This document shows, piece by piece, positions 4,631-47,998 of a DNA stretch of 64,000 bases; position 1 is the first letter of the stretch, and every line of letters begins with the position of its first letter. The notes under the pieces are model-generated. The model worked only from the letters and a program-made list of their open reading frames with translations. It was not told the origin of the DNA and did no database searches. Made by a program: the position numbers and the translations under genes. Source of the DNA: Escherichia coli (lineage in GTDB: Bacteria > Pseudomonadota > Gammaproteobacteria > Enterobacterales > Enterobacteriaceae). The DNA lies in the NCBI RefSeq assembly GCF_016026235.1, contig NZ_CP065613.1. One strand, 5' to 3'.

Positions 4631-6894
4631 CCAGGCCAGTAACGTTATCAGAACCCCATTTCAGCCAGCATACCCTGAACAAGTATGCATCGCTGATGGC
4701 GCAGGGGAACGGCTATCTTGGGCTTCGCGCCAGCCATGAAGAAGATTACACGCGCCAGACGCGAGGGATGTATCTGGCGGGGCTGTATCATCGGGCGGGA
4801 AAAGGTGAAATCAACGAACTGGTGAACCTGCCTGATATCTTGGGGATGGAGATTGCCATAAATGGTGAGGTTTTCTCGTTATCCCGCGAAGCCTGGCAGC
4901 GTGAACTTGACTTTGCCAGTGGAGAATTACGCCGTAGCGTTGTCTGGCGTACCAGCAACGGCACAGGTTACACCATCGCCAGCCGTCGCTTTGTTTCGGC
5001 AGACCAACTGCCGCTCATTGTGCTGGAAATCACTATTACGCCACTGGACGCCGACGCGTCAGTGCTGATTTCAACAGGTATCGACGCTACGCAAACCAAC
5101 CACGGTCGCCAACATCTCGACGAAACCCAGGTGCGGGTGTTTGGTCAGCATCTGATGCAGGGGATCTACACCACCCAGGATGGACGCAGTGATGTGGCCA
5201 TCAGCTGTTGCTGTATGGTGAGCGGTGATGTGCAGCAATGCTATACCGCCAAAGAGCGCCGTTTGCAGCAACATACCAGTGCGCAGCTTCATGCAGGCGA
5301 GACAGTGACGTTGCAAAAACTGGTGTGGATCGACTGGCGGGATGACAGGCAAGCCGTTTTAGACGAGTGGGGCAGCGCGTCGCTTCGCCAGCTTGAAATG
5401 TGCGCGCAGCAGAGTTACGACCAACTTCTTGCAGTATCAACAGAAAACTGGCGTCAATGGTGGCAGAAACGTCGTATCACGGTAAATGGCGGCGAAGCGC
5501 ACGATCAGCAAGCGTTAGATTATGCGCTTTATCATCTGCGCATCATGACGCCTGCCCACGACGAGCGCAGCAGCATTGCGGCAAAAGGCTTAACCGGCGA
5601 AGGCTACAAAGGCCACGTTTTCTGGGATACAGAAGTATTTTTGTTACCGTTTCATCTGTTTAGCGATCCGACGGTTGCCCGAAGTTTACTGCGTTATCGC
5701 TGGCACAACTTGCCAGGCGCGCAGGAGAAAGCGCGACGCAACGGCTGGCAGGGCGCGCTATTTCCGTGGGAAAGCGCGCGCAGCGGCGAAGAAGAGACGC
5801 CGGAATTTGCCGCCATTAACATTCGCACCGGGCTGCGGCAAAAAGTGGCCTCGGCGCAGGCGGAACATCATCTGGTGGCCGATATCGCCTGGGCGGTTAT
5901 TCAATACTGGCAGACCACGGGGGATGAAAGTTTCATTGCGCATGAAGGCATGGCGCTACTTCTGGAAACTGCAAAGTTCTGGATTAGCCGCGCGGTGAGG
6001 GTTAACGACCGTCTGGAAATTCATGATGTTATTGGGCCTGACGAATATACCGAACATGTCAATAATAACGCCTTCACCAGCTATATGGCGTATTACAACG
6101 TCCAGCAGGCGCTGAGTATTGCCCGCCAGTTTGGCTGTAGCGACGATGCGTTTATCCATCGCGCCGAAATGTTCCTTAAAGAACTGCGGCTGCCAGAAAT
6201 TCAGCCCGACGGCGTTTTGCCGCAGGATGATTCGTTTATGGCTAAGCCGGCGATTAATCTGGCGAAATACAAAGCGGCGGCGGGGAAGCAAACCATTCTG
6301 CTGGATTATTCACGCGCAGAAGTGAACGAGATGCAAATCCTCAAACAAGCTGATGTGGTGATGCTCAATTACATGCTGCCGGAGCAGTTCTCAGCGGCAT
6401 CGTGTCTTGCCAATCTGCAATTTTATGAACCGCGCACTATTCACGACTCGTCATTAAGTAAAGCAATCCACGGCATTGTTGCCGCACGCTGTGGCCTGCT
6501 GACCCAAAGTTATCAGTTCTGGCGCGAGGGGACTGAAATCGATCTTGGTGCTGATCCGCATAGTTGTGATGATGGTATCCATGCTGCCGCAACTGGCGCT
6601 ATCTGGCTGGGGGCGATTCAGGGTTTTGCCGGGGTGAGCGTGCGTGACGGTGAATTGCATCTCAATCCGGCGTTACCTGAGCAGTGGCAACAGTTGTCTT
6701 TCCCTCTGTTCTGGCAGGGCTGCGAATTACAGGTCACGCTCGACGCGCAGCGTATTGCGATTCGAACTTCTGCGCCCGTTTCACTGCGTTTGAACGGGCA
6801 GCTTATATCCGTGGCTGAAGAATCTGTTTTCTGTTTGGGTGATTTTATTTTGCCCTTCAATGGGACCGCTACCACACATCAGGAGGATGAATGA
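4627..6894 (+). CDS. ycjT: kojibiose phosphorylase (glycoside hydrolase family 65)
   Basis: 755-aa ORF; GH65 size and sequence; overlapping start/stop with neighbours. Confidence 0.9.
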
Positions 6895-8646: not shown

Positions 8647-8690
8647 ATACAGGGGGAAGGCATTCCCCCAGAATAATACAAGGAACAATA

Positions 8691-15672: not shown

Positions 15673-16638
15673 ATGAGAACCGTTAAGGTATTTGAGGAAG
15701 CCTGGCCCTTACATACCCCGTTTGTGATTGCCCGGGGAAGTCGCAGTGAAGCGCGCGTGGTGGTGGTTGAACTGGAAGAAGAGGGTATTAAAGGCACCGG
15801 CGAATGCACGCCGTATCCGCGTTATGGAGAAAGTGATGCCTCGGTAATGGCGCAAATTATGAGCGTCGTACCGCAATTAGAGAAAGGGCTGACACGGGAG
15901 GAGTTGCAAAAAATTCTCCCTGCCGGCGCAGCACGTAATGCGCTGGATTGTGCATTGTGGGATCTGGCGGCGCGAAAACAGCAGCAATCGCTGGCTGATT
16001 TGATCGGCATAACGCTTCCCGAGACAGTCACCACTGCACAGACGGTAGTCATCGGTACGCCTGATCAGATGGCCAATAGCGCATCAACACTCTGGCAGGC
16101 CGGCGCGAAATTATTGAAAGTGAAGCTGGATAACCATCTTATCAGTGAGCGGATGGTGGCAATTCGCACAGCTGTGCCCGATGCCACGCTGATCGTTGAT
16201 GCAAATGAATCATGGCGTGCAGAAGGGTTGGCGGCACGTTGCCAGCTATTGGCGGATTTAGGCGTTGCTATGCTTGAACAACCGCTTCCTGCGCAGGACG
16301 ATGCGGCACTGGAGAATTTTATTCATCCGTTACCGATTTGTGCTGATGAAAGTTGTCATACTCGTAGCAATCTGAAGGCGCTGAAAGGGCGCTATGAGAT
16401 GGTTAACATTAAGCTCGATAAAACCGGGGGGCTGACGGAAGCGCTGGCGCTGGCGACTGAAGCACGTGCACAAGGTTTTCGTCTGATGCTGGGCTGCATG
16501 TTGTGTACCTCTCGTGCCATTAGCGCCGCTTTACCGCTGGTGCCGCAGGTCAGTTTCGCCGATCTTGACGGACCGACCTGGCTGGCGGTAGATGTGGAAC
16601 CGGCGCTTCAGTTCACGACGGGCGAATTGCATCTTTAG
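15673..16638 (+). CDS. ycjG: L-Ala-D/L-Glu epimerase (enolase superfamily)
   Basis: Start at MRTVKVFEEAW within longer ORF; synteny. Confidence 0.85.
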   Translation: MRTVKVFEEAWPLHTPFVIARGSRSEARVVVVELEEEGIKGTGECTPYPRYGESDASVMAQIMSVVPQLEKGLTREELQKILPAGAARNALDCALWDLAARKQQQSLADLIGITLPETVTTAQTVVIGTPDQMANSASTLWQAGAKLLKVKLDNHLISERMVAIRTAVPDATLIVDANESWRAEGLAARCQLLADLGVAMLEQPLPAQDDAALENFIHPLPICADESCHTRSNLKALKGRYEMVNIKLDKTGGLTEALALATEARAQGFRLMLGCMLCTSRAISAALPLVPQVSFADLDGPTWLAVDVEPALQFTTGELHL

Positions 16639-17341
16639 GATGCCAGCGCAGCAAGTTTGCCATCGCAAAGAGATATTTTTCGCTGGCTTCGTCGGAGGAG
16701 ATGGGCGGAAACTCTGCGGTGATGCAATGCAAGTTCAGATCTGCACACCAACTGCCGAAAGAGCCAGGCGTTTCATAACCGACGCTGGTTACCAGAGGCA
16801 ATTCAAACGCCTGAGCCAGCCATTCGCCTAATTCGCTGTGTCTGGGATCTTCAATACAGGCCAGTGGATCGTGGAATGAGACCACCCAGGCAGGTTGAAT
16901 GCGGTGTATAAGCTGGCACAGCGCCTGGGTTTCAGGTTCGGAGCCAGGTTTGTCACCAGTCAGTAATACGACATCACGTTCTTCAGCGGCGCTGTTCCAG
17001 CGATAAACCGTTTCACCTTCCTTCCAGTTTGCCGCCGGAAAGTTTCTGTTTAAATCCACACCATTAGCATTGGCCCGTAACCCCAGCTGGCAGCCGTCAG
17101 GATTCACACACAGCACCACATGATGGCGGCGCAAAGAAGGTGTCAAAGTCCGCAGAGCACAGGAGAGCGTGACGACCGAAGAGTTTTCATCACCGTGAGT
17201 GCCAGCCAGAATCAAACCACTTTCGCGACTGGCTGCAGGGGCCGGAAACCAGATTAACGGCGCGCCCAATAATGAACGTCCGTAATGTTCTGTTCCGGGC
17301 GGAAATGCGCCGCGTTCGGCGCGTGGGCGGGTTACGGTCAT
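16613..17341 (-). CDS. mpaA: murein tripeptide amidase (zinc carboxypeptidase family)
   Basis: Start at MTVTRPRAERG; convergent 26-bp overlap with ycjG end. Confidence 0.85.
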   Translation of the reverse strand: MTVTRPRAERGAFPPGTEHYGRSLLGAPLIWFPAPAASRESGLILAGTHGDENSSVVTLSCALRTLTPSLRRHHVVLCVNPDGCQLGLRANANGVDLNRNFPAANWKEGETVYRWNSAAEERDVVLLTGDKPGSEPETQALCQLIHRIQPAWVVSFHDPLACIEDPRHSELGEWLAQAFELPLVTSVGYETPGSFGSWCADLNLHCITAEFPPISSDEASEKYLFAMANLLRWHPKDAIRPS

Positions 17342-18270: not shown

Positions 18271-18870
18271 AATATTTCTCATGAAACTTATCACAGATGG
18301 GTGTTGAAAAAAGGAATAACTTTTTCCAGCTCCTCCTGAACAGCTTCCGGTTTGTCATACAGTTCATAATGTGAGAAATCGGGTAATGAAACTAACTGAC
18401 GATCCTGCGAAACCATCGCCCGGCCATAGACTTCCAGTCCATCACGATAAGCACCGAAGGCACCGACTTTTTCACCAACTACTACCATCACCGGCTGAGT
18501 CAGTAACACTTCAGTAAATGCGAAGGCATCCCAGGCCAGCGTTTTCTGTGCATGTGAGAACAACATTTTTGTCGCACCTCCCGGTTGTTGCCCGCGTGGT
18601 GTTTTATAGTAGTCAGTTGCTTCATAAACATCGCGTTCGGTCAGTCCATGGGCTTTTGCTGCATCCAGGCTGGCGGGAAGTAATTCGTTGATCTGTAATT
18701 CTCCACCACGAGCCTCTTTGGTTCGTTGCGACGCCATTGCATTCAATGCGCCAATCGGATCGTAATTGCTGAAACCTTCCCGAAAAAGACGCCCGATATT
18801 AACACCCGTAATACTCACTACAGCTTTAATTCGTTTTTCTGTCAGCGCGGCATTAATGGCATAGCCACCC

Positions 18871-20320
18871 GTTACTTTATTCGTACCCCTTATAATGGGG
18901 TGTTAGCCAGCCAGACCCGGCATGATTACTGCCCCCAGTCGTCCATGATCCGGGGGGTGATGTCACCGGGTCTGGTGGGGCGCTGGTAACCGCTAATAGG
19001 GGTCAGGTCAGGCACTTTTGCCGGGACCGTCTGTAACGTGGATGCCGGTACCTGCTCCCCGTGGTTATCTGGTTAACCCATATACAAGGGAGACAGAATG
19101 ACCGAATCCAGCGATTACGAATCCGTCCAGGTCTTTATCGGCGTTGATGTCGGTAAAGATACGCATCACGCTGTTGCCATTAATCGTTCAGGTAAACGCC
19201 TGTTCGATAAAGCATTACCCAACGACGAAAACAAACTCAGGTCGCTAATATCTGACCTGAAACAACATGGTCAGATACTGCTGGTTGTTGATCAGCCAGC
19301 TACCATCGGTGCGTTACCTGTCGCCGTTGCCCGCTCAGAAGGAGTCCTTGTCGGATACCTCCCTGGACTGGCCATGCGCCGCATAGCCGACTTACACGCC
19401 GGTGAAGCTAAAACTGATGCTCGTGACGCTGCCATCATTGCCGAAGCTGCCCGTACCCTGCCTCACGCGCTACGCACGCTGAAACTGGCTGACGAGCAAA
19501 TCGCCGAACTCTCCATGCTCTGCGGCTTCGATGATGATCTTGCCGCACAGACAACGCAGGCCAGCAACCGTATCCGCGGCCTTCTGACCCAGATACATCC
19601 GGCACTGGAGCGCGTTCTCGGTCCGAGACTTGAGCACCCGGCGGTACTCGATCTTCTCCAGCGATATCCCTCACCAGAAAAACTCGCTTCGCTGGGTGAG
19701 AAGAAGCTGGCAGCCCAGCTCTGCAAACTTGCGCCTCGTCTGGGTAAACGCCTTGCAGCAGACATAGCTCAGGCACTGGCCGAACAAACCGTCGTCGTTC
19801 CCGGCACGAATGCCGCTGCCGTAGTACTGCCACGTCTGGCACTCCAGCTCATCACGCTGCGTAAGCAAAGAGACGAGGTGGCGCTTGAGGTAGAACAGCG
19901 AGTTCTTGCTCACCCTCTTTACCCGGTCCTGACCAGTATGCCCGGAGTCGGTGTCAGGACCGCAGCCAGACTCCTCACCGAGGTCGCCTGCCGCGCCTTC
20001 GCCTCTGCCGCACATCTCGCTGCTTATGCTGGCCTTGCGCCGGTAACTCGGCGATCCGGCTCGTCAATACGCGGTGAGCATCCCTCGCGACGGGGTAATA
20101 AAGCTCTCAAACGGGCGTTGTTCCTGTCGGCCTTCGCCGCGCTCAGGGATCCGCTCTCCAGGGCTTACTACACCCGCAAAATGAGTCAGGGAAAACGACA
20201 CAATCAGGCGCTTATCGCCCTGGCGAGACGACGCTGCGACGTTCTGTTCGCCATGATGCGCGACGGGACTTTTTATACCCCGCAGGGGTCATAACATGCT
20301 TGACAACTTAATAGGGGCAC
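18871..20320 (+). mobile_element. IS110-family insertion sequence (about 1.45 kb, no terminal inverted repeats seen)
   Basis: Limits set by loss of hydrolase homology on both sides; 227-bp 5' leader, transposase ORF, 26-bp 3' end. Confidence 0.75.
19098..20294 (+). CDS. IS110-family transposase (DEDD N-domain plus C-terminal domain)
   Basis: 398 aa; N-terminal FIGVDVGKDTHHAV and C-terminal MPGVGVRTAARLL motifs; RBS aagggag. Confidence 0.85.
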   Translation: MTESSDYESVQVFIGVDVGKDTHHAVAINRSGKRLFDKALPNDENKLRSLISDLKQHGQILLVVDQPATIGALPVAVARSEGVLVGYLPGLAMRRIADLHAGEAKTDARDAAIIAEAARTLPHALRTLKLADEQIAELSMLCGFDDDLAAQTTQASNRIRGLLTQIHPALERVLGPRLEHPAVLDLLQRYPSPEKLASLGEKKLAAQLCKLAPRLGKRLAADIAQALAEQTVVVPGTNAAAVVLPRLALQLITLRKQRDEVALEVEQRVLAHPLYPVLTSMPGVGVRTAARLLTEVACRAFASAAHLAAYAGLAPVTRRSGSSIRGEHPSRRGNKALKRALFLSAFAALRDPLSRAYYTRKMSQGKRHNQALIALARRRCDVLFAMMRDGTFYTPQGS

Positions 20321-20670
20321 CCCCCCACACACACCCAGCACGCCAATGCGTTCAGCATCAACATATGGCAGAGTTACTGCATAATCGATAACACGGCTAA
20401 TATCCTCTACGCGCTGTGTCGGATCTTCTATCCAACGAGGCTCCCCACCAGATTCTCCCTGGAAACTGGCGTCATAAGCGAGAACGACATAGCCTTTTTC
20501 AGCCAATGCCTTGCCATAGATATTGCCAGACGTCTGCTCCTTACAACTGCCAAAAGGATGGACGCTGATAATCGCCGGATACTGTTTTGACTCATCAAAA
20601 TTTGGTGGAAACTGAATATTGGCAGCAATATGCCAGGCCATATCACTATTGCGGATTTGAATATGTTTCA

Positions 20671-21591
20671 TTACAGAGTTTCCTCAAAGAACGGAGCTAA
20701 TACTGAAATTGCTTCAGCCACATAGGCTTTGCCGTCATAAAGATCCATATGGTTTGCGCCTTCAACAATGTGATAGCGTTTATCCTGGCTTGATGCCCGA
20801 TCGTACAGGTCGTCACTCATCCATTTGCTCCCTGCCTGGCTGCCCGCCACAATCTGCGTCGGCTGAGTCAGGTACACTTCCGCCATATGGTAAGCATCAT
20901 AGGTAATAATCTGGTTAAGGCTGCGCAAAGTAGCGTAACCCGGTGCTGTTGGATACTGCGCGCGAGGGGTGTGGTAATACTCCCAGGCCTGACGCAGTTC
21001 TTCGTTCGGCGCATCGGACTCCTTCATTGGTGCCAGTGGCATAATGGCGTATTCTTCGCTGCTAATATCGCTGGTTCGGGCGTTTGAGCCAGCTTCAATG
21101 TGTGGCAGAGCATCAATAGATTTCACATTGTTTTCCCAACCATTGCGGAACATCGAACCAATATTGACCGCACTAACGGTACCGATGGCCTTGATGCGGC
21201 GATCCTGAATTGCAGCATTGGCTGTATATCCTGCACCGGCACAAATTCCCATCGCACCAATTCGGGTATTGTCGACATAAGAAAGCGTTGTCAGGTAATC
21301 AATCACGGCACTGACGTCTTCAGTACGAATGTATGGGTTTTCTAACTGACGCGGCTCGCCGCCACTTTCACCCTGATAAGATGCGTCATAAGCAATAGTG
21401 ACAAATCCCTTTTCCGCCAGTTTTTCGGCATAGGTCCCGGCCGTTTGTTCTTTAACGCCCCCACCTGGGTGAGATACCACAATTGCCGGATATTGACGGG
21501 TTTCATCAAATTTTGGAGGAAAATAGATCACTGCAGACAAAGAGATGGTTGGATTATTGCTGTTAGTGAAGCTGACTTTATTATTCATCAT
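20671..21591 (-). CDS. ycjY: alpha/beta hydrolase
   Basis: Intact ORF divergent from pgrR; ATGA overlap with the downstream paralog. Confidence 0.75.
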   Translation of the reverse strand: MMNNKVSFTNSNNPTISLSAVIYFPPKFDETRQYPAIVVSHPGGGVKEQTAGTYAEKLAEKGFVTIAYDASYQGESGGEPRQLENPYIRTEDVSAVIDYLTTLSYVDNTRIGAMGICAGAGYTANAAIQDRRIKAIGTVSAVNIGSMFRNGWENNVKSIDALPHIEAGSNARTSDISSEEYAIMPLAPMKESDAPNEELRQAWEYYHTPRAQYPTAPGYATLRSLNQIITYDAYHMAEVYLTQPTQIVAGSQAGSKWMSDDLYDRASSQDKRYHIVEGANHMDLYDGKAYVAEAISVLAPFFEETL

Positions 21592-21728: not shown

Positions 21729-22628
21729 ATGAAGCGTGAAGAGATCGCTGATCTGATGGCGTTTGTCGTCGTTGCAGAGGAGCGTAGCTTCACTCGCGCA
21801 GCAGCCCGCCTGAGCATGGCGCAGTCAGCTTTAAGCCAGATAGTGCGCCGTATAGAAGAACGATTGGGATTGCGGCTTCTGACGCGAACCACGCGCAGTG
21901 TTGTACCCACTGAAGCGGGCGAGCATCTTTTGTCTGTTCTTGGCCCTATGCTGCATGACATAGATTCTGCCCTGGCATCCCTGAGCGATCTGCAGAACCG
22001 CCCATCCGGGACAATACGTATTACTACTGTAGAACATGCAGCAAAAACGATATTGTTACCAGCCATGCGCACATTCCTGAAATCACACCCTGAAATTGAT
22101 ATTCAGCTTATCATTGATTATGGTTTGACTGATGTCGTTTCTGAACGTTTTGATGCAGGCGTCCGTCTGGGTGGGGAGATGGATAAAGATATGATCGCCA
22201 TTCGAATCGGGCCAGATATACCAATGGCTATTGTTGGCTCACCGGATTATTTTTCTCGCCGAAGTGTTCCAACGTCAGTGTCACAATTAATAGATCATCA
22301 GGCAATTAATTTGTATCTTCCCACATCGGGTACAGCAAATCGCTGGAGATTAATACGCGGTGGACGTGAAGTTCGTGTTCGCATGGAAGGTCAGCTTTTA
22401 CTGAATACGATAGACCTGATCATTGATGCTGCAATTGATGGGCATGGATTGGCGTATCTACCTTATGATCAGGTTGAGCGGGCTATTAAAGAAAAAAAAC
22501 TGATACGTGTTTTGGATAAATTCACACCAGATTTACCCGGTTATCACCTGTACTATCCACACCGTCGACATGCTGGCTCGGCATTCTCATTATTTATAGA
22601 TAGGCTGAAGTATAAAGGTGCTGTTTAG
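21729..22628 (+). CDS. pgrR: LysR-family transcriptional regulator
   Basis: 299-aa ORF; N-terminal HTH LMAFVVVAEERSFTRAAARLSMAQSALSQ. Confidence 0.85.
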   Translation: MKREEIADLMAFVVVAEERSFTRAAARLSMAQSALSQIVRRIEERLGLRLLTRTTRSVVPTEAGEHLLSVLGPMLHDIDSALASLSDLQNRPSGTIRITTVEHAAKTILLPAMRTFLKSHPEIDIQLIIDYGLTDVVSERFDAGVRLGGEMDKDMIAIRIGPDIPMAIVGSPDYFSRRSVPTSVSQLIDHQAINLYLPTSGTANRWRLIRGGREVRVRMEGQLLLNTIDLIIDAAIDGHGLAYLPYDQVERAIKEKKLIRVLDKFTPDLPGYHLYYPHRRHAGSAFSLFIDRLKYKGAV

Positions 22629-23203
22629 CACTACTTGCTGATACATTAATTTAATTCTTCTCTTAACGTATTCTCAGTTCCTTTCAACGTTTTGGTTATT
22701 TTTTATTCTTCGTACAATGGCGACAGATGCTGATTATGATACCGAAAACTGGTTTGAACGTGTGAAGCCCGAACGTAGTGTTCGGTGTTCTATGTGCTTT
22801 GCCGCATTTTGGCGTCTATTATTTACACTAAATCTGATTTAATATATTGATACATAAAACATTTTATGTTTCCTGTGTCACTTTTTTGATGGAAGTTGTT
22901 TGCATTTCTTTAAGGCGAAACAAATAATTACGCATCAATTTTAATGTCGGTTAGAGGGAAACTTATGAAGCACTCTGTTTCAGTCACGTGTTGTGCGCTG
23001 TTGGTCAGCAGCATTTCTCTTTCGTATGCTGCAGAAGTTCCGAGCGGCACAGTACTGGCAGAGAAGCAGGAGCTGGTGCGCCACATTAAAGATGAGCCTG
23101 CGTCGCTGGATCCCGCTAAAGCCGTGGGCCTGCCAGAGATTCAGGTCATTCGCGATCTGTTTGAAGGACTGGTGAATCAGAACGAGAAAGGGGAGATTGT
23201 CCC

Positions 23204-24496
23204 CTGAGGAATCCCCAGAAAACAAGACAGGCATAGTGAGATGTGATCTAATTGATTGTGCTAACAATTTCAAGGAGATCACCACTATGCCTGCACGTTC
23301 ATTATGCCAAAATTTCCTTAACAATATACTGGCCCCTTTGCATCTTTACCGTCAAAAATCACTGATTGACGCAACTAATGCTGTAATAAATGGCGCTTCC
23401 CTCACACTTACCAGTATCGGGCGTCATTTAACCGGTACGGCATCAGTTAAAAACAAAATAAAGCGGGTGGATCGACTGTTGGGGAATCGACATTTGCAAA
23501 ATGAGGTTTCCACCATTTTTCAGCGAATTACCCAAAAGATTACGCGGGGAATGTCTCGTGTTGTGATACTCATTGACTGGAGTGCTTATCATGCCTCTCG
23601 TTTTCAGCTTTTGCGGGCAAGCCTGGCATGTGACGGGCGTTCTTTACCGTTGATGAGTTGTGTCGTTCCATCATCACAGACAGCGAATGCAGATGTACAT
23701 GAGCGTTTTCTGGAATCGCTTGCTGAGTGCTTTTCCCCGGGACTGATGTCATTGTTATTACAGATGCCGGTTTTCAGGGGCGATGGTTCCAACAGCTCCG
23801 CTCCCGTGGCTGGACCTATATTTGCCGGGTACTGGGCAATCATTATTACAATGTTGGTAATGGCTGGGAAAAGGTGTCGGACTCAGGCACAAAAGCATCA
23901 ACGACAGCAATTTATTTAGGTGAAGGCCTGCTGGGTCGAGATAAAAATGCACAACATGAAGGGCATTTTTATCTTTATAAAAGTAAGCCTAAAGGTCGTA
24001 GATTTAAACGCTCGAAGGAAAGAGCAACCAGACCATCGGTGACGGCTAAAGCTCGTACTGCCGGGAAATCACCATGGTTTATTTTCACAAACAGTACTGA
24101 GTTCTCGCCAAAACAGGTAATGAAATTATACAGCCGTAGAATGCAAATTGAGCAAAATTTCAGGGATGAAAAAAATCCTCGCTGGGGATTTGGACTACGG
24201 TTTGGTGCCAGTCATTCATCCGGGCGGGTCACGGTATTGAGTCTGATCGCAACATTAGCCAGTATCATTATGTGGTTAAGCGGTTTCAGCCTGGAAAACA
24301 AAGGGATACATCATAAATATCAGGCAAATACAGTGAAGCACAGGCGAGTCATCTCGTTATTAAAACTGGCGGAGAATGTGATTCGACATTCTCCACTCAT
24401 ACTAAACACACTGTCACTTGACGCAGGGCTGAAAGTTCTACAGCAACGGTATACCAATATGATAATGGTTTACTAAATTTTCTGGGGATCCCTCAG
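23204..24496 (+). mobile_element. IS4-family (IS10-like) insertion sequence, copy 1
   Basis: Terminal inverted repeats CTGAGGAATCCCCAGAAAA / TTTTCTGGGGATCCCTCAG; 10-bp direct repeat AGATTGTCCC on both flanks. Confidence 0.85.
23287..24476 (+). pseudogene. IS10-like transposase, frameshifted in copy 1
   Basis: One C missing from the C5 run near 23747 relative to copies 2 and 3; ORF splits into 23197-23919 and 23727-24476. Confidence 0.8.
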
Positions 24497-25931
24497 AGAT
24501 TGTCCCCGGCGTTGCGACTCAGTGGAAAAGTAATGACAACCGTATCTGGACTTTTACCCTGCGCGATAACGCAAAATGGGCGGATGGCACACCGGTAACG
24601 GCGCAAGATTTTGTCTACAGCTGGCAACGTCTGGTGGACCCGAAAACGCTATCGCCATTTGCATGGTTTGCCGCGCTGGCGGGAATCAACAACGCACAGG
24701 CGATTATTGATGGTAAAGCTACGCCAGACCAGCTTGGCGTCACCGCAGTTGATGCCCATACTTTGAAAATTCAGCTTGATAAACCGTTGCCGTGGTTTGT
24801 GAATTTAACCGCTAACTTTGCCTTCTTCCCGGTGCAAAAAGCCAACGTAGAAAGCGGTAAAGAGTGGACGAAACCCGGAAATCTGATCGGCAATGGCGCT
24901 TATGTTCTTAAAGATCGCGTAGTCAATGAAAAACTGGTCGTGGTACCGAATACCCATTATTGGGATAACGCCAAAACGGTGCTGCAAAAAGTGACTTTCC
25001 TGCCAATTAATCAGGAATCCGCAGCCACTAAGCGTTACCTCGCGGGGGATATTGATATCACCGAATCCTTCCCGAAAAATATGTATCAGAAGCTGTTGAA
25101 GGATATTCCGGGGCAGGTTTATACGCCGCCGCAGCTCGGGACCTATTATTATGCGTTTAACACGCAAAAAGGGCCGACGGCAGATCAGCGCGTTCGCCTG
25201 GCATTAAGTATGACGATAGATCGCCGCCTGATGACCGAAAAAGTGTTGGGAACGGGCGAAAAGCCAGCGTGGCATTTTACACCAGATGTTACCGCCGGAT
25301 TTACGCCGGAACCTTCGCCGTTTGAACAAATGAGTCAGGAAGAACTGAATGCGCAGGCAAAAACTTTGTTGAGCGCAGCTGGTTATGGTCCGCAAAAACC
25401 GCTGAAGCTGACGCTTTTGTATAACACTTCAGAAAACCATCAAAAAATTGCGATTGCTGTAGCATCGATGTGGAAAAAGAACCTTGGCGTAGATGTTAAA
25501 TTGCAAAATCAGGAATGGAAAACCTATATCGATAGCCGTAACACCGGCAATTTTGATGTTATCCGCGCCTCGTGGGTGGGGGATTATAATGAACCCTCCA
25601 CTTTCCTGACATTATTAACGTCAACGCATTCAGGAAATATTTCACGCTTTAACAATCCGGCATACGACAAAGTTCTGGCCCAGGCATCGACGGAAAATAC
25701 CGTTAAAGCGCGTAATGCCGATTACAACGCGGCAGAAAAAATCCTCATGGAGCAAGCACTGATTGCACCAATTTATCAATATACCAATGGACGATTAATC
25801 AAGCCGTGGCTGAAAGGTTATCCCATTAATAACCCGGAAGATGTGGCGTACAGCCGGACTATGTATATTGTGAAGCATTGATGTGATGGGAACTGGCGTT
25901 ACCCTTGTGGATAACGCCAGTGATGTCTGAT

Positions 25932-30112: not shown

Positions 30113-31406
30113 CTGAGGAATCCCCAGAAAACAAGACAGGCATAGTGAGATGTGATCTAATTGATTGTGCTAACAATTTCAAGGAGATCACCACTATGCC
30201 TGCACGTTCATTATGCCAAAATTTCCTTAACAACATACTGGCCCCTTTGCATCTTTACCGTCAAAAATCACTGATTGACGCAACTAATGCTGTAATAAAT
30301 GGCGCTTCCCTCACACTTACCAGTATCGGGCGTCATTTAACCGGTACGGCATCAGTTAAAAACAAAATAAAGCGGGTGGATCGACTGTTGGGGAATCGAC
30401 ATTTGCAAAATGAGGTTTCCACCATTTTTCAGCGAATTACCCAAAAGATTACGCGGGGAATGTCTCGTGTTGTGATACTCATTGACTGGAGTGCTTATCA
30501 TGCCTCTCGTTTTCAGCTTTTGCGGGCAAGCCTGGCATGTGACGGGCGTTCTTTACCGTTGATGAGTTGTGTCGTTCCATCATCACAGACAGCGAATGCA
30601 GATGTACATGAGCGTTTTCTGGAATCGCTTGCTGAGTGCTTTTCCCCCGGGACTGATGTCATTGTTATTACAGATGCCGGTTTTCAGGGGCGATGGTTCC
30701 AACAGCTCCGCTCCCGTGGCTGGACCTATATTTGCCGGGTACTGGGCAATCATTATTACAATGTTGGTAATGGCTGGGAAAAGGTGTCGGACTCAGGCAC
30801 AAAAGCATCAACGACAGCAATTTATTTAGGTGAAGGCCTGCTGGGTCGAGATAAAAATGCACAACATGAAGGGCATTTTTATCTTTATAAAAGTAAGCCT
30901 AAAGGTCGTAGATTTAAACGCTCGAAGGAAAGAGCAACCAGACCATCGGTGACGGCTAAAGCTCGTACTGCCGGGAAATCACCATGGTTTATTTTCACAA
31001 ACAGTACTGAGTTCTCGCCAAAACAGGTAATGAAATTATACAGCCGTAGAATGCAAATTGAGCAAAATTTCAGGGATGAAAAAAATCCTCGCTGGGGATT
31101 TGGACTACGGTTTGGTGCCAGTCATTCATCCGGGCGGGTCACGGTATTGAGTCTGATCGCAACATTAGCCAGTATCATTATGTGGTTAAGCGGTTTCAGC
31201 CTGGAAAACAAAGGGATACATCATAAATATCAGGCAAATACAGTGAAGCACAGGCGAGTCATCTCGTTATTAAAACTGGCGGAGAATGTGATTCGACATT
31301 CTCCACTCATACTAAACACACTGTCACTTGACGCAGGGCTGAAAGTTCTACAGCAACGGTATACCAATATGATAATGGTTTACTAAATTTTCTGGGGATC
31401 CCTCAG
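30113..31406 (+). mobile_element. IS4-family (IS10-like) insertion sequence, copy 2
   Basis: Same terminal inverted repeats; 10-bp direct repeat GGTAAATCCC on both flanks; 1294 bp. Confidence 0.85.
30196..31386 (+). CDS. IS10-like transposase (IS4 family), intact
   Basis: 396 aa from MPARSL; NKIKRVDRLLGNRHL and IEQNFRDEKNPRWGFGLR regions resemble the IS10 transposase. Confidence 0.85.
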   Translation: MPARSLCQNFLNNILAPLHLYRQKSLIDATNAVINGASLTLTSIGRHLTGTASVKNKIKRVDRLLGNRHLQNEVSTIFQRITQKITRGMSRVVILIDWSAYHASRFQLLRASLACDGRSLPLMSCVVPSSQTANADVHERFLESLAECFSPGTDVIVITDAGFQGRWFQQLRSRGWTYICRVLGNHYYNVGNGWEKVSDSGTKASTTAIYLGEGLLGRDKNAQHEGHFYLYKSKPKGRRFKRSKERATRPSVTAKARTAGKSPWFIFTNSTEFSPKQVMKLYSRRMQIEQNFRDEKNPRWGFGLRFGASHSSGRVTVLSLIATLASIIMWLSGFSLENKGIHHKYQANTVKHRRVISLLKLAENVIRHSPLILNTLSLDAGLKVLQQRYTNMIMVY

Positions 31407-32817: not shown

Positions 32818-33849
32818 GTGATGATAATTTCTAAAAAACAGCTTATTGGGGTGGTAGCGATCGGTATTCTTTTGACTGGCGTTGTCTTTTTTATCTGGTG
32901 GGTAAGCAAAGGAAGATTTATACAGACGACGGATGATGCTTACATTGGTGGTAATATCACCACGGTGGCAAGTAAAGTTTCTGGTTATATTTCTGCTATA
33001 GAGGTGCGCGATAATCAGAGCGTAAAAAAAGGCGATATTATCCTGCGTCTCGATGATCGGGATTATCGTGCAAATGTCGCCAGGCTTGAGGCAAAAATAA
33101 AAAGTAGCAAAGCCAATCTCGAAGGCATTCAAGCCACTATTGCGATGCAGCAGTCGATAATTCAAAGTGCCAGTGAAACATGGCAGGCAGTAAAACATGA
33201 GGAGCAAAAGCGCCTGCGAGATACTGAACGTTATGAAAAACTCGCACAATCAGCGGCAATATCGCAACAAATTATTGATAACGCCAGGTTTGACTACCAG
33301 CAGGTCGCAGCAAAGGAGCGCAAAGCCGCGAACGATTTCCTGGTGGAGAAGCAACGGCTGGCAGTTTTATCTGCTCAGGAAGAAAACGTACGTGCGAGTA
33401 TCGAAGAAGTTCAGGCCGCTTTGACTCAGGCACTACTGGATCTGGAATATACCCTTGTGCGTGCGCCGATTGATGGCATTGTCGCAAACCGCAGCGCCCA
33501 TACAGGCAGTTGGGTGGAAGGCGGCACATCGTTAGTTTCACTAGTACCAGTCAGTGAGTTGTGGGTTGATGCAAATTATAAAGAAAACCAAATAGCGGGA
33601 ATGAAGCCAGGAATGAAGGCTGAGATCCGTGCTGATATTCTCAAAGGGGAAGTGTTTCACGGTCACATTGAAAGCCTTTCCCCAGCGACAGGAGCCAGTT
33701 TCAGCTTGATTCCGATAGAAAATGCCACTGGCAATTTCACCAAAATTGTTCAGCGTGTCCCGGTACGGATTGCATTTGACGACGCAAAGGAATTAAAGCA
33801 ACTTCTTCGCCCGGGACTGTCCGTCACCGTCAGTGTTGATGAGAGATGA
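32818..33849 (+). CDS. HlyD/EmrA-family membrane fusion protein
   Basis: 343-aa ORF with N-terminal TM segment, coiled-coil middle and beta-barrel C-terminus. Confidence 0.8.
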   Translation: MMIISKKQLIGVVAIGILLTGVVFFIWWVSKGRFIQTTDDAYIGGNITTVASKVSGYISAIEVRDNQSVKKGDIILRLDDRDYRANVARLEAKIKSSKANLEGIQATIAMQQSIIQSASETWQAVKHEEQKRLRDTERYEKLAQSAAISQQIIDNARFDYQQVAAKERKAANDFLVEKQRLAVLSAQEENVRASIEEVQAALTQALLDLEYTLVRAPIDGIVANRSAHTGSWVEGGTSLVSLVPVSELWVDANYKENQIAGMKPGMKAEIRADILKGEVFHGHIESLSPATGASFSLIPIENATGNFTKIVQRVPVRIAFDDAKELKQLLRPGLSVTVSVDER

Positions 33850-35359
33850 TGTCTATGCGTAAACATATTGCTTTCGCCAGTATGTGTATGGGATTATTTA
33901 TTGCTCAGCTTGATATTCAAATTGTATCGTCATCCCTAAATGAAATAGGTGGTGGTTTGTCCGCAGGTAAAGACGAAATGGCCTGGCTTCAGACCAGCTA
34001 TTTAATTGCTGAGATTATTGTTATTCCGCTCTCTGGGTGGCTGTCACGGGTATTTTCCACTCGTTGGCTTTTTACTCTATCCGCGGGAATATTTACTTTA
34101 ATGAGTATCGCGTGTGGACTTGCATGGAATATTCAGATCATGATTTTGTTTCGTGCTTTACAGGGAGCTGCTGGCGCATCCATGATCCCTTTAGTTTTCA
34201 CGACGGCGTTTATTTATTACCAGGGTAAAGAGTTGGGGTTGGCTGCTGCGGTAGTCAGTGCGCTGGCCTCACTGTCACCGACGCTAGGGCCAACTCTGGG
34301 GGGCTGGATCACTGATAACCTCGACTGGCGATGGCTATTTTATATCAATATATTACCTGGCATATATTTAGTTTTGAGTATTCCTTTTCTGGTTAATTTT
34401 GATAAACCTGATCTCTCTTTACTGAAAGTTGCTGATTATCCGAGTATTATCCTGTTGGCCATGACTCTGGGATGTCTGGAATATACCCTTGAAGAAGGAG
34501 CGCGCTGGGGATGGCTGGATGATAATACTATTTTGCTGACATCAGTTCTGGCATTGGTGAGTTTTATTTTATTTGCTGCGCGTACACTTACAATATCCAA
34601 TCCGATAATGGATCTTCATGCTTTTAAGGATAAAAATTTCACTCTGGGATGTTTTTTTTCTTTTTCTGGAGGGGTTGGGATATTCTCTACTGTATATTTA
34701 ATACCTGTGTTTTTGGGGCAGATTCGCGGATTAAATGCCGAAGAGATAGGTTTTGCCGTTTGCACAACAGGTATTTTCCAGTTATTTTCTGTTCCCTTTT
34801 ACTTCTGGTTAAGTAAAAAAATAAATCTGCGATGGCTGTTGATGGCGGGGCTGGGCGGATTTGTGTTTTCAATGTATCTTTTTACCCCTATAACCCACGA
34901 ATGGGGATGGCAGGAATTACTGTTTCCACAGGCAATTAGAGGGATTTCGCAGCAGTTTGCGATGGCCCCATCGTAACATTAACGCTAGGGGGAATTCCAA
35001 AAGAACGGCTGAAGTTAGCCTCTGGTGTATTTAATTTAACACGTAATCTTGGGGGCGCGATTGGTATTGCCCTGTGTGGCTCTATTCTCAATAATCGAAC
35101 TAATTTTCATTTTTCGCGAATGGGTGAAAAAATGGTTTCTGTTCCCCATACGGTGAATGACTTCATTTCCAGAAGTGCTTTATTTTTTAATCGCAGTGGA
35201 AGTGACCAGACATCGGAAATACTGGCTTCAACCAAATTATTGAGTCAATTGATGCTGAGGGAGGCGCAAACTATGGCATTTTCGGATACCTTTCTGCTAA
35301 TCAGTGGTCTGTTATTTATCGCATTTTTGTTGGTTCCTGCTATGAATAAATCATCCTGA
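33846..35359 (+). pseudogene. MFS efflux transporter (EmrB-like) with apparent frameshift
   Basis: ORF 33846-34976 stops early; the protein continues in another frame through 35359. Confidence 0.65.
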
Positions 35360-41574: not shown

Positions 41575-42810
41575 CTACGATAACCGCGCATTCAACATGG
41601 CTATCTGTTCGTCGTTCATGTCATCAATCCACATACCGTAAATTTCATACACCATTTGCGCAGTTTCATGCCCCATCTGGCTGGCTATAAATGCCGGGTT
41701 CGCTCCTGCCGTCAACAGCCAGCAGGCAAAAGTATGTCGCGTATGGTACGGATTACGGCGGCGAATACCAGCACGTTTTACTGCTGCATTCCATCTCGCA
41801 CCCAAACTGCTTACCGAGTAATAAGGTTTCTGTTTTCCGTTACACATCCTGGGCATGAAAACAAAATGCAGTTTTTGCTTTTCGGTTCTGCCGTACTCCC
41901 GATGATAAAAAGTGATTTCGCTTTTGCGATGATGCCCGGTCAGTTTGTATTGCTCCTTCAGTGCTTCAAGAGCTGGCTGTAGTAATGTTACCGTCCGGAT
42001 CCCGGCATTTGTTTTTGGGGGACCGAACATATCAAGTATCGTCAGGTTTCTTCTGACATTCACAATTCCCTTCTCGAAATCCACATCCTCCCACGCCAGA
42101 GCTGCCAGTTCCCCGTGACGAAGCCCGGAGTAAACGGCAAATTTCCACAAGTTTTGGCTCTGTCCTTTTTCACTTTCCATTAATGCATTGAATTCTGTTT
42201 TAGATAACGGGTCAGGCTTTATTCTGTTTCGCTGTAATTTTTTTACTCCTTCAAATGGTTTGGTTGATATAAATCCCGACTGATACGCAAAACGTAACAG
42301 CGAACAGAGCAGGGCGATATAGTTATCAACTGTGCGCACGGTTCTTCCTTTTTTGTTGGATCTTGGATTATCCAGGTAAAGCGTTTCTCCATGCAGCAGT
42401 TCATTCCGGTAGTTTAAGATATCGCTATAACGAATATATGATATCGGGGTACTTTCACAAATTATTATTCTGAGTGTTTTTAATTGTGATTTCGTTTTCT
42501 TCATTGTGTTTGTTGTTAACTCTGTCTCTTTAATTTTTGTCCAGATATCACAAAGCTCCCCGAACGTTTTTATGACTCTCGTTGTCACCATTTTTGCCCC
42601 AGTGCTGGACTGGGGAAAACGTCTTAAATACTCAAATTCACCGGAGTTTATTTCATGAACTATCAGCGCTCTTAAATTTCCGGCCTTTTTAATATTACTG
42701 TTTGTAATCTCCCAGCCTTTTAATGTTTCCCGACATCGTTTTCCTCGAAACATGAACCAGATGCGAATGTTTCTACCTCTAATCTCGACACCTGTTGGTA
42801 ATTTAGACAT
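41575..42810 (-). CDS. intR: prophage tyrosine integrase (Rac IntR-like)
   Basis: 411-aa ORF; C-terminal catalytic region with HTRHTFA and terminal Y-containing box. Confidence 0.9.
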   Translation of the reverse strand: MSKLPTGVEIRGRNIRIWFMFRGKRCRETLKGWEITNSNIKKAGNLRALIVHEINSGEFEYLRRFPQSSTGAKMVTTRVIKTFGELCDIWTKIKETELTTNTMKKTKSQLKTLRIIICESTPISYIRYSDILNYRNELLHGETLYLDNPRSNKKGRTVRTVDNYIALLCSLLRFAYQSGFISTKPFEGVKKLQRNRIKPDPLSKTEFNALMESEKGQSQNLWKFAVYSGLRHGELAALAWEDVDFEKGIVNVRRNLTILDMFGPPKTNAGIRTVTLLQPALEALKEQYKLTGHHRKSEITFYHREYGRTEKQKLHFVFMPRMCNGKQKPYYSVSSLGARWNAAVKRAGIRRRNPYHTRHTFACWLLTAGANPAFIASQMGHETAQMVYEIYGMWIDDMNDEQIAMLNARLS

Positions 42811-45106: not shown

Positions 45107-46400
45107 CTGAGGGATCCCCAGAAAATTTAGTAAACCATTATCATATTGGTATACCGTTGCTGTAGAACTTTCAGCCCTGCGTCAAGTGACAGTGTGTTTA
45201 GTATGAGTGGAGAATGTCGAATCACATTCTCCGCCAGTTTTAATAACGAGATGACTCGCCTGTGCTTCACTGTATTTGCCTGATATTTATGATGTATCCC
45301 TTTGTTTTCCAGGCTGAAACCGCTTAACCACATAATGATACTGGCTAATGTTGCGATCAGACTCAATACCGTGACCCGCCCGGATGAATGACTGGCACCA
45401 AACCGTAGTCCAAATCCCCAGCGAGGATTTTTTTCATCCCTGAAATTTTGCTCAATTTGCATTCTACGGCTGTATAATTTCATTACCTGTTTTGGCGAGA
45501 ACTCAGTACTGTTTGTGAAAATAAACCATGGTGATTTCCCGGCAGTACGAGCTTTAGCCGTCACCGATGGTCTGGTTGCTCTTTCCTTCGAGCGTTTAAA
45601 TCTACGACCTTTAGGCTTACTTTTATAAAGATAAAAATGCCCTTCATGTTGTGCATTTTTATCTCGACCCAGCAGGCCTTCACCTAAATAAATTGCTGTC
45701 GTTGATGCTTTTGTGCCTGAGTCCGACACCTTTTCCCAGCCATTACCAACATTGTAATAATGATTGCCCAGTACCCGGCAAATATAGGTCCAGCCACGGG
45801 AGCGGAGCTGTTGGAACCATCGCCCCTGAAAACCGGCATCTGTAATAACAATGACATCAGTCCCGGGGGAAAAGCACTCAGCAAGCGATTCCAGAAAACG
45901 CTCATGTACATCTGCATTCGCTGTCTGTGATGATGGAACGACACAACTCATCAACGGTAAAGAACGCCCGTCACATGCCAGGCTTGCCCGCAAAAGCTGA
46001 AAACGAGAGGCATGATAAGCACTCCAGTCAATGAGTATCACAACACGAGACATTCCCCGCGTAATCTTTTGGGTAATTCGCTGAAAAATGGTGGAAACCT
46101 CATTTTGCAAATGTCGATTCCCCAACAGTCGATCCACCCGCTTTATTTTGTTTTTAACTGATGCCGTACCGGTTAAATGACGCCCGATACTGGTAAGTGT
46201 GAGGGAAGCGCCATTTATTACAGCATTAGTTGCGTCAATCAGTGATTTTTGACGGTAAAGATGCAAAGGGGCCAGTATGTTGTTAAGGAAATTTTGGCAT
46301 AATGAACGTGCAGGCATAGTGGTGATCTCCTTGAAATTGTTAGCACAATCAATTAGATCACATCTCACTATGCCTGTCTTGTTTTCTGGGGATTCCTCAG
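45107..46400 (-). mobile_element. IS4-family (IS10-like) insertion sequence, copy 3
   Basis: Same inverted repeats; 10-bp direct repeat GGGTGTTCCC on both flanks; 1294 bp. Confidence 0.85.
45127..46317 (-). CDS. IS10-like transposase (IS4 family), intact
   Basis: Translation identical to the copy 2 transposase. Confidence 0.85.
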   Translation of the reverse strand: MPARSLCQNFLNNILAPLHLYRQKSLIDATNAVINGASLTLTSIGRHLTGTASVKNKIKRVDRLLGNRHLQNEVSTIFQRITQKITRGMSRVVILIDWSAYHASRFQLLRASLACDGRSLPLMSCVVPSSQTANADVHERFLESLAECFSPGTDVIVITDAGFQGRWFQQLRSRGWTYICRVLGNHYYNVGNGWEKVSDSGTKASTTAIYLGEGLLGRDKNAQHEGHFYLYKSKPKGRRFKRSKERATRPSVTAKARTAGKSPWFIFTNSTEFSPKQVMKLYSRRMQIEQNFRDEKNPRWGFGLRFGASHSSGRVTVLSLIATLASIIMWLSGFSLENKGIHHKYQANTVKHRRVISLLKLAENVIRHSPLILNTLSLDAGLKVLQQRYTNMIMVY

Positions 46401-47998
46401 GGGTGTTCCCTCCTCCGGTTCGCTGTTCTGGTGCTGTTTATCTTCAGTCTGTCGCACTTCATTTTCCGTTTTTTTGACTTCATTTGAGGAGATATGATGA
46501 CCGGGAATCCATTTCGGATCATTCGGGTCGCTAATCCCTTCAACAAATTCTCCGCGAGAGGCAGCCAGTAATTTGTCTGCATCGACAGGATTTTTGGGCG
46601 GAATGTTTTTCCGGGCTTCATGGAGTTCTGCCCGCAGTTCCTGATATTTCTCATCAACAGCATTTACCTGTGACTGAGCATCCAGCGGCTGCGTGTCCTG
46701 ATGATGTTCAGTTGCATCCGGTTCCACTGTTTCAGCCGTTGCCTGTTCATCTGCCATTGCGCAAGATGGTTGCGGTTTTTCTTCATCATCCTGTTTTCCT
46801 TCTTCTGTTACTCGCTGCGGCATCGGGGCAGAGGAGCGACCGCAGGCAATATCCACGATTTCCGGATCAGGGTTGGCATGATCGGTTTCAGTCAGTACCT
46901 TGTTCAGATATTCAGTGACGTGCGCGGGGATGACCTCGATACCAATCGGTGCTTCTTTCACTGACGCAACCACGATGGCGCGGGAATAATCCATCCCGCC
47001 AGGCATGGTGATGAATTTGTCGCGGAAAACAGAAAAGGGCGGTTTATTTTCAGTGATAATTTCCTCAATGCGTTTAGCGTGTGCCGGATGAAGATTATAA
47101 ATATCCACGTCCATTGAACGGGCCAGTACGCCAGTGGCTACGTCGCGCGCCAGCGACGTCAGATCGTGGACGAAACCTTCGCCGCGATCGGTGAGGTTCC
47201 CGCCGCCAGCATTAGCACCGGAAGCCGTGCGAGTGATACGCGAAACACGATTTCCTTTCATCCACTCTTTTGTCAGCAGACCGCGATCGGTGTAGTTGGC
47301 ATCCAGATATGCTTCGAAAAAAGCAGTCATCAGTCCCAGATTTGAATTGCCAGGATTAGGGAAAACTTTGTCAGTATCACGCACGAGTTTGTGGAGGTCG
47401 CGAATCTCCAGCGGGTCGAGCAGACTGGTTTTATGCGAAACAGCCAGAGCAGTAACAGCCGGTAGTTCTTCATCCCGAGCAATGTGTAATGCCTGGAGTT
47501 CGTCGCGTGAAACGTGCGTTACCGGTTTTTCGCTGCCGTGTTGCGCAAGCCAACGAATGGGCAGTTCCTGACCGGAAACTGGCAGGAGCATGTTCTCCTC
47601 AATTTCTGTCATGTCTTCGCCGTTGACGTTGGTATTGTCAGTGCTGGCTGGTTTGTCCTGAACAGAGGGAGAAGATGCGATAAATACCATTGTGATGCCA
47701 TCTTCCCCGCCTTTTTCGTAACGGTTGCAGAATTCCGTATCAAACACGCCTTCTGGTGGGAGGTCATCAACAACGGGCAAATTGACGCGAACAGGTTTTT
47801 TAAAGTCATCTTCATCGTAGCCAGCATCGTCAATCGCAACAGCACCACGGGAGATGGCAATGGATAATTTTTTCGCTTCAGCCCAGTAAAAACCGCCTTT
47901 AATACCGAGGCGTTTTCTTACTTTGTCATTTTTTGCTTCGTAATACAGTGGGTAAACTTGTTTATCGGTGCTCATTGTTTTTTAACCTCAACTCATAT

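Follow-up and report, generated by a model that had tools for sequence, protein, structure and literature searches.

Interruption of mppA by ISEc60 at a target site used repeatedly by two insertion sequences in Escherichia coli

In a stretch of 64,000 nucleotides of Escherichia coli DNA (NCBI RefSeq assembly GCF_016026235.1, contig NZ_CP065613.1; hereafter the window, at its full length), mppA, the gene for the murein tripeptide-binding protein, is a pseudogene, interrupted after codon 80 by a copy of the insertion sequence (IS) ISEc60. Taken as a whole, it is very probable that mppA has undergone a recent pseudogenization by ISEc60, that the site was set by the target specificity of the element, and that the strain makes no functional periplasmic MppA. 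The same codons are occupied in other strains by ISEc60 in the opposite orientation and by IS186, and this recurrence renders its mechanism more ordinary and the pattern more interesting.

RESULTS

Anatomy of the insertion

The mppA frame opens with an ATG that both the map of open reading frames (ORFs) and the raw sequence place at 22965, and its product begins MKHSVSV. Codon 80, a proline, spans 23202 to 23204, and the first bases of the insert then supply a TGA (23205 to 23207), leaving a truncated product of 80 amino acids (Table 1). Terminal inverted repeats of 19 bp with one mismatch bound all three ISEc60 copies of the window; the repeat pattern occurs six times, as three element copies require, against an expectation of 0.00 by chance (shuffles give none). 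A perfect direct repeat of 10 bp lies on either side of the element in mppA, and excision of the element in silico together with one repeat copy restores an open frame of 1614 nucleotides encoding 537 amino acids, while excision with a 9-bp repeat fails to do so. A reading of the window alone had held that mppA is inactivated by an IS between 22965 and 25881, with the insertion after codon 80; the start, the stop at 25881, and the restored ORF all agree with this, and the frame does end at codon 80, at the insert-supplied TGA. Beyond the element, the longest in-frame ORF starts from a GTG at 24634, 138 nucleotides past the insertion, and encodes 415 amino acids.

The rebuilt protein differs by two substitutions over residues 23 to 537 from E. 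coli MppA of known structure (PDB 3O9P and 4TOZ; 1175 bits) and scores about 540 bits against OppA chains, i.e., half its score against the MppA structures, and the gene order pgrR-mppA-ynaI, the context expected of MppA, is conserved at the locus. What the gene lacks is an uninterrupted reading frame, which is cut by 1293 bp plus the 10-bp duplication; it is a pseudogene and not a functional member of its family. In related genomes, mppA already carries the pseudogene label of the Prokaryotic Genome Annotation Pipeline (PGAP) and RefSeq. The insertion junctions are identical in three independent public assemblies, namely, the National Collection of Type Cultures (NCTC) assembly GCA_900449985.1 (L027), L030, and RMDEC364, which excludes an assembly artefact as the source of the insertion. 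The 3' fragment also carries the substitution P498L (C to T at 25760), found only in the window and L027, the residue being proline in the draft assembly GCA_902503985.1 (L028), FDAARGOS_943, RMDEC364, and PDB 3O9P; it may be a first sign of drift after inactivation. Because P498L is lineage specific, an exact look-up of the rebuilt intact product found no gene on record encoding such a protein.

Identity of the element

A megablast search of 5,426 complete E. coli genomes found the element in 14 genomes at 99.2 to 99.9% nucleotide identity, under the PGAP name "IS4-like element ISEc60 family transposase"; the identification as ISEc60 rests on these PGAP-named copies. For the identity tests, we took the intact 396-amino-acid transposase from the second window copy. 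This protein is identical to WP_001111632.1, matches the NCBIfam IS4_2 equivalog NF033591 with 360.5 bits (cutoff, 152) as well as Pfam DDE_Tnp_1 (PF01609), and is 36% identical, across 93% of its length, to the transposases of IS10A and ISVsa5. The ends of ISEc60 (CTGAGGAATCCCC and CTGAGGGATCCCC) and those of an IS10A copy (CTGAAGAATCCCC and CTGAAGGATCCCC) are nearly the same over the terminal 13 bp. Every intact ISEc60 copy is flanked by a 10-bp duplication, and since this holds in both orientations, an extra terminal base is excluded. By these matches, the element is identified as ISEc60, of the IS4 family and IS10 subgroup, IS10-like at the subgroup level only and not IS10 proper. The original prediction of an IS10-like element thus stands at the level of the subgroup, as the transposase identity and the similar ends indicate, with two corrections: the element is ISEc60, and its duplication is 10 bp long where that of IS10 is 9 bp.

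Two other descriptions of the element were considered and rejected: (i) an element of 1292 bp with a 12-bp duplication is ruled out by the third window copy, with its A...T flanks, and by the ompG site described below, and the ends of IS10A likewise start with CTGA; (ii) a close relationship with IS186 is contradicted by a BLASTP match limited to 22 residues around the YREK motif and by different NCBIfam models for the two transposases. A literature search on the biology of ISEc60 returned only two papers, both naming it in passing. On the Shigella flexneri plasmid NZ_CP026099.1, an unannotated ORF (99735 to 100925) encodes a protein 51.6% identical to the ISEc60 transposase, a more distant relative of ISEc60 on a plasmid of virulence-plasmid size.

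Compared with the other two window copies, the one in mppA has one substitution and lacks 1 bp of a C-run at 23735 to 23738 (C4 here, C5 in the others). The deletion throws the transposase out of frame behind codon 152, upstream of both the second catalytic aspartate, in VITDAGF, and the glutamate of the YREK region. L027 and the window match along 20.4 kb apart from this single C. An exact look-up of the frameshifted 210-amino-acid transposase fragment turned up the C4 variant in further long-read assemblies, at ISEc60 copies elsewhere, and did not match the window's own record. The C4 frameshift may be a homopolymer sequencing error or may mark a slippage-prone site; in the former case, the mppA copy may still be autonomous.

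Target preference of ISEc60

The empty mppA target, GGGGAGATTGTCCCC, reads GGGG-AGATTGT-CCCC, an exact G4N7C4, and encodes Gly-Glu-Ile-Val-Pro; the hot spot is formed by codons 77 to 81. Duplications and flanks at about 15 distinct sites define a symmetric ISEc60 preference, cG/GGGAWWTCCC/Cg (consensus target written out, CGGGGAATTCCCCG), and all nine training sites have G just before the duplication (position -1) and C just after it (position +1). These nine sites, all outside the window, were used to build a symmetrized position weight matrix. When applied to a reconstruction of the window without IS elements, the matrix places the three occupied sites 1st, 4th (mppA), and 23rd among 60,068 positions. 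Target specificity is therefore sufficient to explain the hit in mppA.

Many ISEc60 targets are palindromes with a GC stem and an AT loop followed by T-runs, resembling intrinsic terminators (e.g., AAAAAAGCCGGGGATAATTCCCCGGTTTTT; loci L007, L012, and L034 to L038). ISEc60 thus seems to home to terminator hairpins, with the mppA site as an intragenic look-alike. Different genomes have the site beside ogt filled in one or the other orientation, and the same is true of one plasmid site across two plasmids.

Further sites add to the support for this preference. Two head-to-tail ISEc60 copies lie exactly 10 bp apart (GGGATTTACC) between hokB and ydcA on the chromosome (loci L004 and L005) and in plasmid pCFSAN029787_01 (L039); the arrangement is consistent with either a second insertion into the target duplicated by the first or an intermediate in the form of an IS dimer. 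A high-scoring ISEc60-type target, GGGGGAAGGCATTCCCCC, lies 23 bp upstream of ompG (8653 to 8669) and is empty in the window. FDAARGOS_943 has ISEc60 at this site with its other flank from the uidR region, and these ompG and uidR flanks mark the joint of an IS-mediated rearrangement.

The other element found in mppA, IS186, follows the highly specific target rule GGGG(N6/N7)CCCC, with 54 sites in K-12 and either orientation used (Lee et al. 2016, PMC5009759). Hot spots that it uses in both orientations include fimA and menC (PMC5009759); its main text makes no mention of mppA.

Recurrent occupation of the mppA site

The exact 80-amino-acid truncated product is encoded on 677 public contigs, whose source names include E. 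coli and Shigella flexneri. Most of the loci that were fetched carry IS186 at the same codon, with ends CATAAGCGCTAACTTAAGGGTTG, a 370-amino-acid transposase, and an 11-bp duplication, GGAGATTGTCC; the product is the same with either element because both give an in-frame stop right after Pro80. Occupancy of the site amounts to 7 of the 5,426 complete genomes. IS186 (PGAP name, IS421) accounts for five of these, in both orientations, and occurs at the site in many other assemblies, while ISEc60 is found in two, RMDEC364 in the orientation of the window and FDAARGOS_943 in the opposite one with the same 10-bp duplication. The survey used the hot-spot junctions and the exact 80-amino-acid product, and its counts thus cover disruptions at the hot spot and not elsewhere in mppA.

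Comparison of the 1.1 kb upstream revealed a single haplotype on which the site is found with ISEc60 in the plus orientation, with ISEc60 in the minus orientation, and empty. The window, FDAARGOS_943, L027, and L030 share this 1.1-kb haplotype without a difference, along with the 10-bp duplication, the haplotype of RMDEC364 has 10 differences, and at least four further haplotypes bear the IS186 insertions. These comparisons point to at least seven independent insertions at the mppA site, by two elements without meaningful transposase similarity. Literature searches on IS186 together with mppA, and on mppA pseudogenes in Shigella, found nothing relevant.

Age of the insertion and neighboring rearrangements

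The draft assembly L028 carries two other insertions seen in the window, that of an IS110-family element and that of ISEc60 beside ogt, and has an uninterrupted mppA encoding 537 amino acids, one nucleotide apart from the rebuilt gene of the window. Because L028 has the other insertions but an intact mppA, the mppA insertion is the latest of these events in the lineage.

The ISEc60 copies in mppA and beside ogt form direct repeats around 5.6 kb (mppA 3'-ynaI-ynaJ-uspE-fnr-ogt), through which this segment could lose fnr by deletion or behave as a composite transposon. In two NCTC assemblies (L018 and L022), the segment from the mppA 3' fragment to ogt lies the other way round, bordered by an mppA copy in the minus orientation and an ogt copy in the plus orientation, an inversion product showing that the (minus, plus) arrangement also existed.

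Several other features of the window were recorded. The third ISEc60 copy truncates a recE-like gene whose region (45107 to 47975) lies in a Rac-like prophage with an integrase gene at 41575 to 42810. The IS110-family element (18871 to 20319; 1449 bp) encodes a 398-amino-acid transposase (19098 to 20294; NCBIfam, "IS110 family RNA-guided transposase") and splits an alpha/beta-hydrolase gene, a paralogue of ycjY, into fragments at 18291 to 18818 and 20273 to 20671; no target duplication is visible at this element. In FDAARGOS_943, the site is empty; L027 through L030 all carry the insertion. Downstream of an HlyD-family gene, a DHA2-family major facilitator superfamily efflux gene (33846 to 34976) encodes only 376 amino acids; the annotation of FDAARGOS_943 marks it as frameshifted, and it is probably a further pseudogene.

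TABLE 1 Features of the window bearing on the mppA insertion
Feature	Position	Strand	Details
mppA 5' fragment	22965..23203	+	Signal peptide and first 58 residues of the mature protein
Target-site duplication, left copy	23194..23203		10 bp, AGATTGTCCC
ISEc60 copy in mppA	23204..24496	+	1293 bp, against 1294 bp in each of the two remaining copies
Left terminal inverted repeat	23204..23222	+	CTGAGGAATCCCCAGAAAA
Transposase gene of the mppA copy	23287..24476	+	Two ORFs, split by a 1-bp C-run deletion
Right terminal inverted repeat	24478..24496	-	CTGAGGGATCCCCAGAAAA on the minus strand
Target-site duplication, right copy	24497..24506		10 bp, AGATTGTCCC; perfect direct repeat
mppA 3' fragment	24507..25881	+	Codons 81 to 537 and stop; without signal peptide
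Second ISEc60 copy	30113..31406	+	1294 bp; intact 396-amino-acid transposase; downstream of ogt; duplication, GGTAAATCCC
Third ISEc60 copy	45107..46400	-	Duplication, GGGTGTTCCC; truncates recE-like (Exonuc_VIII) prophage gene
pgrR (LysR-type regulator)	21729..22628	+	Intact, 299 amino acids
mpaA (murein tripeptide amidase)	16613..17341	-	Intact; matches full-length NCBIfam equivalog model
ycjG (L-Ala-D/L-Glu epimerase)	15673..16638	+	Intact, 321 amino acids; matches full-length NCBIfam equivalog model

Functional consequence and neighboring genes

OppA gives no transport of murein tripeptide, whereas MppA together with OppBCDF does, with a dissociation constant (KD) of about 250 nM (Maqbool et al. 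2011, PMC3173086). The MppA-Opp system is a high-affinity scavenging route of stationary phase that operates beside AmpG, with CadB as a minor alternative (2024 review, PMC11509177). Neither mppA fragment is predicted to yield functional periplasmic MppA, and the expected consequence, which we infer from this literature, is the loss of MppA-dependent uptake of free murein tripeptide and not of recycling overall. The genes for MpaA, YcjG, and PgrR had been proposed to remain intact, and so they are, with ycjG and mpaA full length by their equivalog models and pgrR at its full number of codons. A polar effect is not expected, because the next gene, ynaI, is convergent.

Across the complete E. 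coli genomes, mppA occurs at 5422 places in 5418 of the 5,426, is single copy in 5414 of those 5418, and has one place in the closest complete genome. Judged from these other genomes and from the fruitless look-up of the rebuilt product, the strain is unlikely to have a second mppA.

DISCUSSION

The observations are best accommodated by the following sequence of events. ISEc60, a cut-and-paste element with a DDE transposase, transposed into mppA, duplicating AGATTGTCCC, recently and in a lineage where ISEc60 has multiplied. Its choice of site would be governed by a preferred G-rich/C-rich palindrome with an A/T-rich center, often a hairpin like that of an intrinsic terminator, which codons 77 to 81 of mppA happen to mimic; IS186, a distant relative, has a canonical GGGG(N7)CCCC hot spot in the same codons. 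Translation ends after residue 80, and the 457 codons that follow have neither a promoter-proximal start nor a signal peptide, while AmpG-dependent recycling and the cytoplasmic breakdown of tripeptide by MpaA and YcjG would be unaffected. The event itself would be neutral or slightly deleterious.

Four points weigh against this account: (i) the transposase frameshift of the mppA copy is absent from L027, where the transposase is called intact; (ii) the ISEc60 target consensus is drawn from only about 15 distinct sites; (iii) the mppA target is perfect in one half-site only (TCCCC), the left half being GAGAT where GGGGA is preferred; and (iv) since CadB and AmpG offer other recycling routes (PMC11509177), the physiological effect may be small.

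An explanation that we consider unlikely is that the loss of MppA has been positively selected, as a pathoadaptive change or for antibiotic tolerance in enteric pathogens, through altered release of murein tripeptide as a ligand of Nod1, instead of or beside the target bias. Null mutants of mppA reportedly show raised multiple antibiotic resistance; at least seven independent insertions have struck one codon; and the carriers include human stool isolates, with records named Shigella flexneri holding the same 80-amino-acid fragment. A passage of PMC4943601, citing Nigro 2008, links MppA to the salvage and release of Nod1 ligands. Target specificity alone, however, predicts the same pattern, the site being a perfect IS186 motif and one of the highest-ranking ISEc60 targets of the window; occupancy is rare among the complete genomes, and the sister strain L028 keeps an intact mppA. 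All of the disruptions seen fall at the hot spot, which is the class that the survey could detect. We give a similarly low probability to a stronger form of this idea, in which GGGGAGATTGTCCCC in mppA acts as a contingency "off switch" on which two unrelated IS4-family transposases have converged, the loss of tripeptide scavenging being intermittently advantageous in gut or invasive lineages. Were this so, the benefit would come through shedding of Nod1 ligand or through drug tolerance, and the motif would have been kept for that benefit instead of being erased synonymously (as in, for example, the recoded form GGTGAAATTGTTCCG). A weaker version retains only the liking of ISEc60 for terminator-like GC hairpins, a target rule that would not have been described before for any such IS10-subgroup element.

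It is very improbable that a single ancestral mppA::ISEc60 insertion spread vertically or by recombination, its orientation being changed later by rearrangement. The window, FDAARGOS_943, L027, and L030 do share their upstream haplotype and the duplication, which speaks for descent from one event, but the same haplotype exists with an empty site in L028, and the insertion of RMDEC364 lies on a different one. Homologous recombination between IS copies was also considered as the origin of the opposite orientation in FDAARGOS_943 and rejected, because an inversion of this kind can never leave an element turned around with respect to its two flanks at once. Moreover, the ogt-side and plasmid sites are likewise occupied in both orientations, and IS186 uses the mppA site too.

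The least probable explanation is that MppA function persists through expression of the 3' fragment from an outward IS promoter, a second copy of the gene, or a substitute binding protein. Elements of the IS10 type can carry outward promoters (pOUT in IS10), and the in-frame ORF starting from the GTG at 24634 could then be expressed, but any such product would have no signal peptide and would be missing 58 or more residues from the mature N terminus (about 100 with this start), so that it can neither reach the periplasm nor fold as a two-lobed binding protein. In addition, OppA does not substitute in murein tripeptide transport (PMC3173086), and mppA is single copy in nearly all complete genomes (5414 of 5418).

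Recent pseudogenization at a site chosen by target specificity thus remains the preferred reading, and on its own it adds one more IS-made pseudogene to an IS-rich strain of E. coli. What the case contributes is the recognition of mppA as a hot spot shared by IS186 and ISEc60 and the apparent target rule of ISEc60. Because codons 77 to 81 of mppA are a predictable hot spot, the same mppA::IS junction in two strains is not to be taken as a sign of common descent. The target rule predicts where ISEc60 will land as it expands and accounts for parallel insertions in these lineages as well as for their tandem copies and IS-mediated inversions. Strains with this allele would be natural MppA-null mutants, usable for studying what part tripeptide scavenging plays in stationary-phase recycling and in the shedding of Nod1 ligands.

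Among known systems, IS10/Tn10 resembles ISEc60 in its DDE_Tnp_1 transposase encoded by a single ORF, in repeats starting CTGA-G-RATCCCC, and in symmetric target hot spots entered in both orientations, and differs from it in length (1329 bp against 1294 bp for ISEc60) and in duplicating 9 bp instead of 10 bp. The IS10 target consensus, NGCTNAGCN, is also unlike that of ISEc60. With the hot spots of IS186, of which the lon promoter is another, the mppA target shares the exact G4N7C4 motif, and IS186 itself occupies it elsewhere in both orientations; the two elements differ in that ISEc60 duplicates 10 bp (motif positions 5 to 14), whereas IS186 at mppA duplicates 11 bp. IS231A reportedly prefers GGG(N)5CCC and is similar as an IS4-family element with a short palindrome of a G-run and a C-run around an A/T-rich spacer and with duplications of about 10 to 12 bp; it belongs to another subgroup, its host is Bacillus thuringiensis, and its spacer differs in length. 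Finally, as in the pseudogenes of IS-rich E. coli and Shigella, a housekeeping gene has been cut by an expanding IS, with more IS insertions and an IS-mediated inversion nearby, and the mppA case does not differ from them in kind, although its cause, a hot spot, is unusually well defined.

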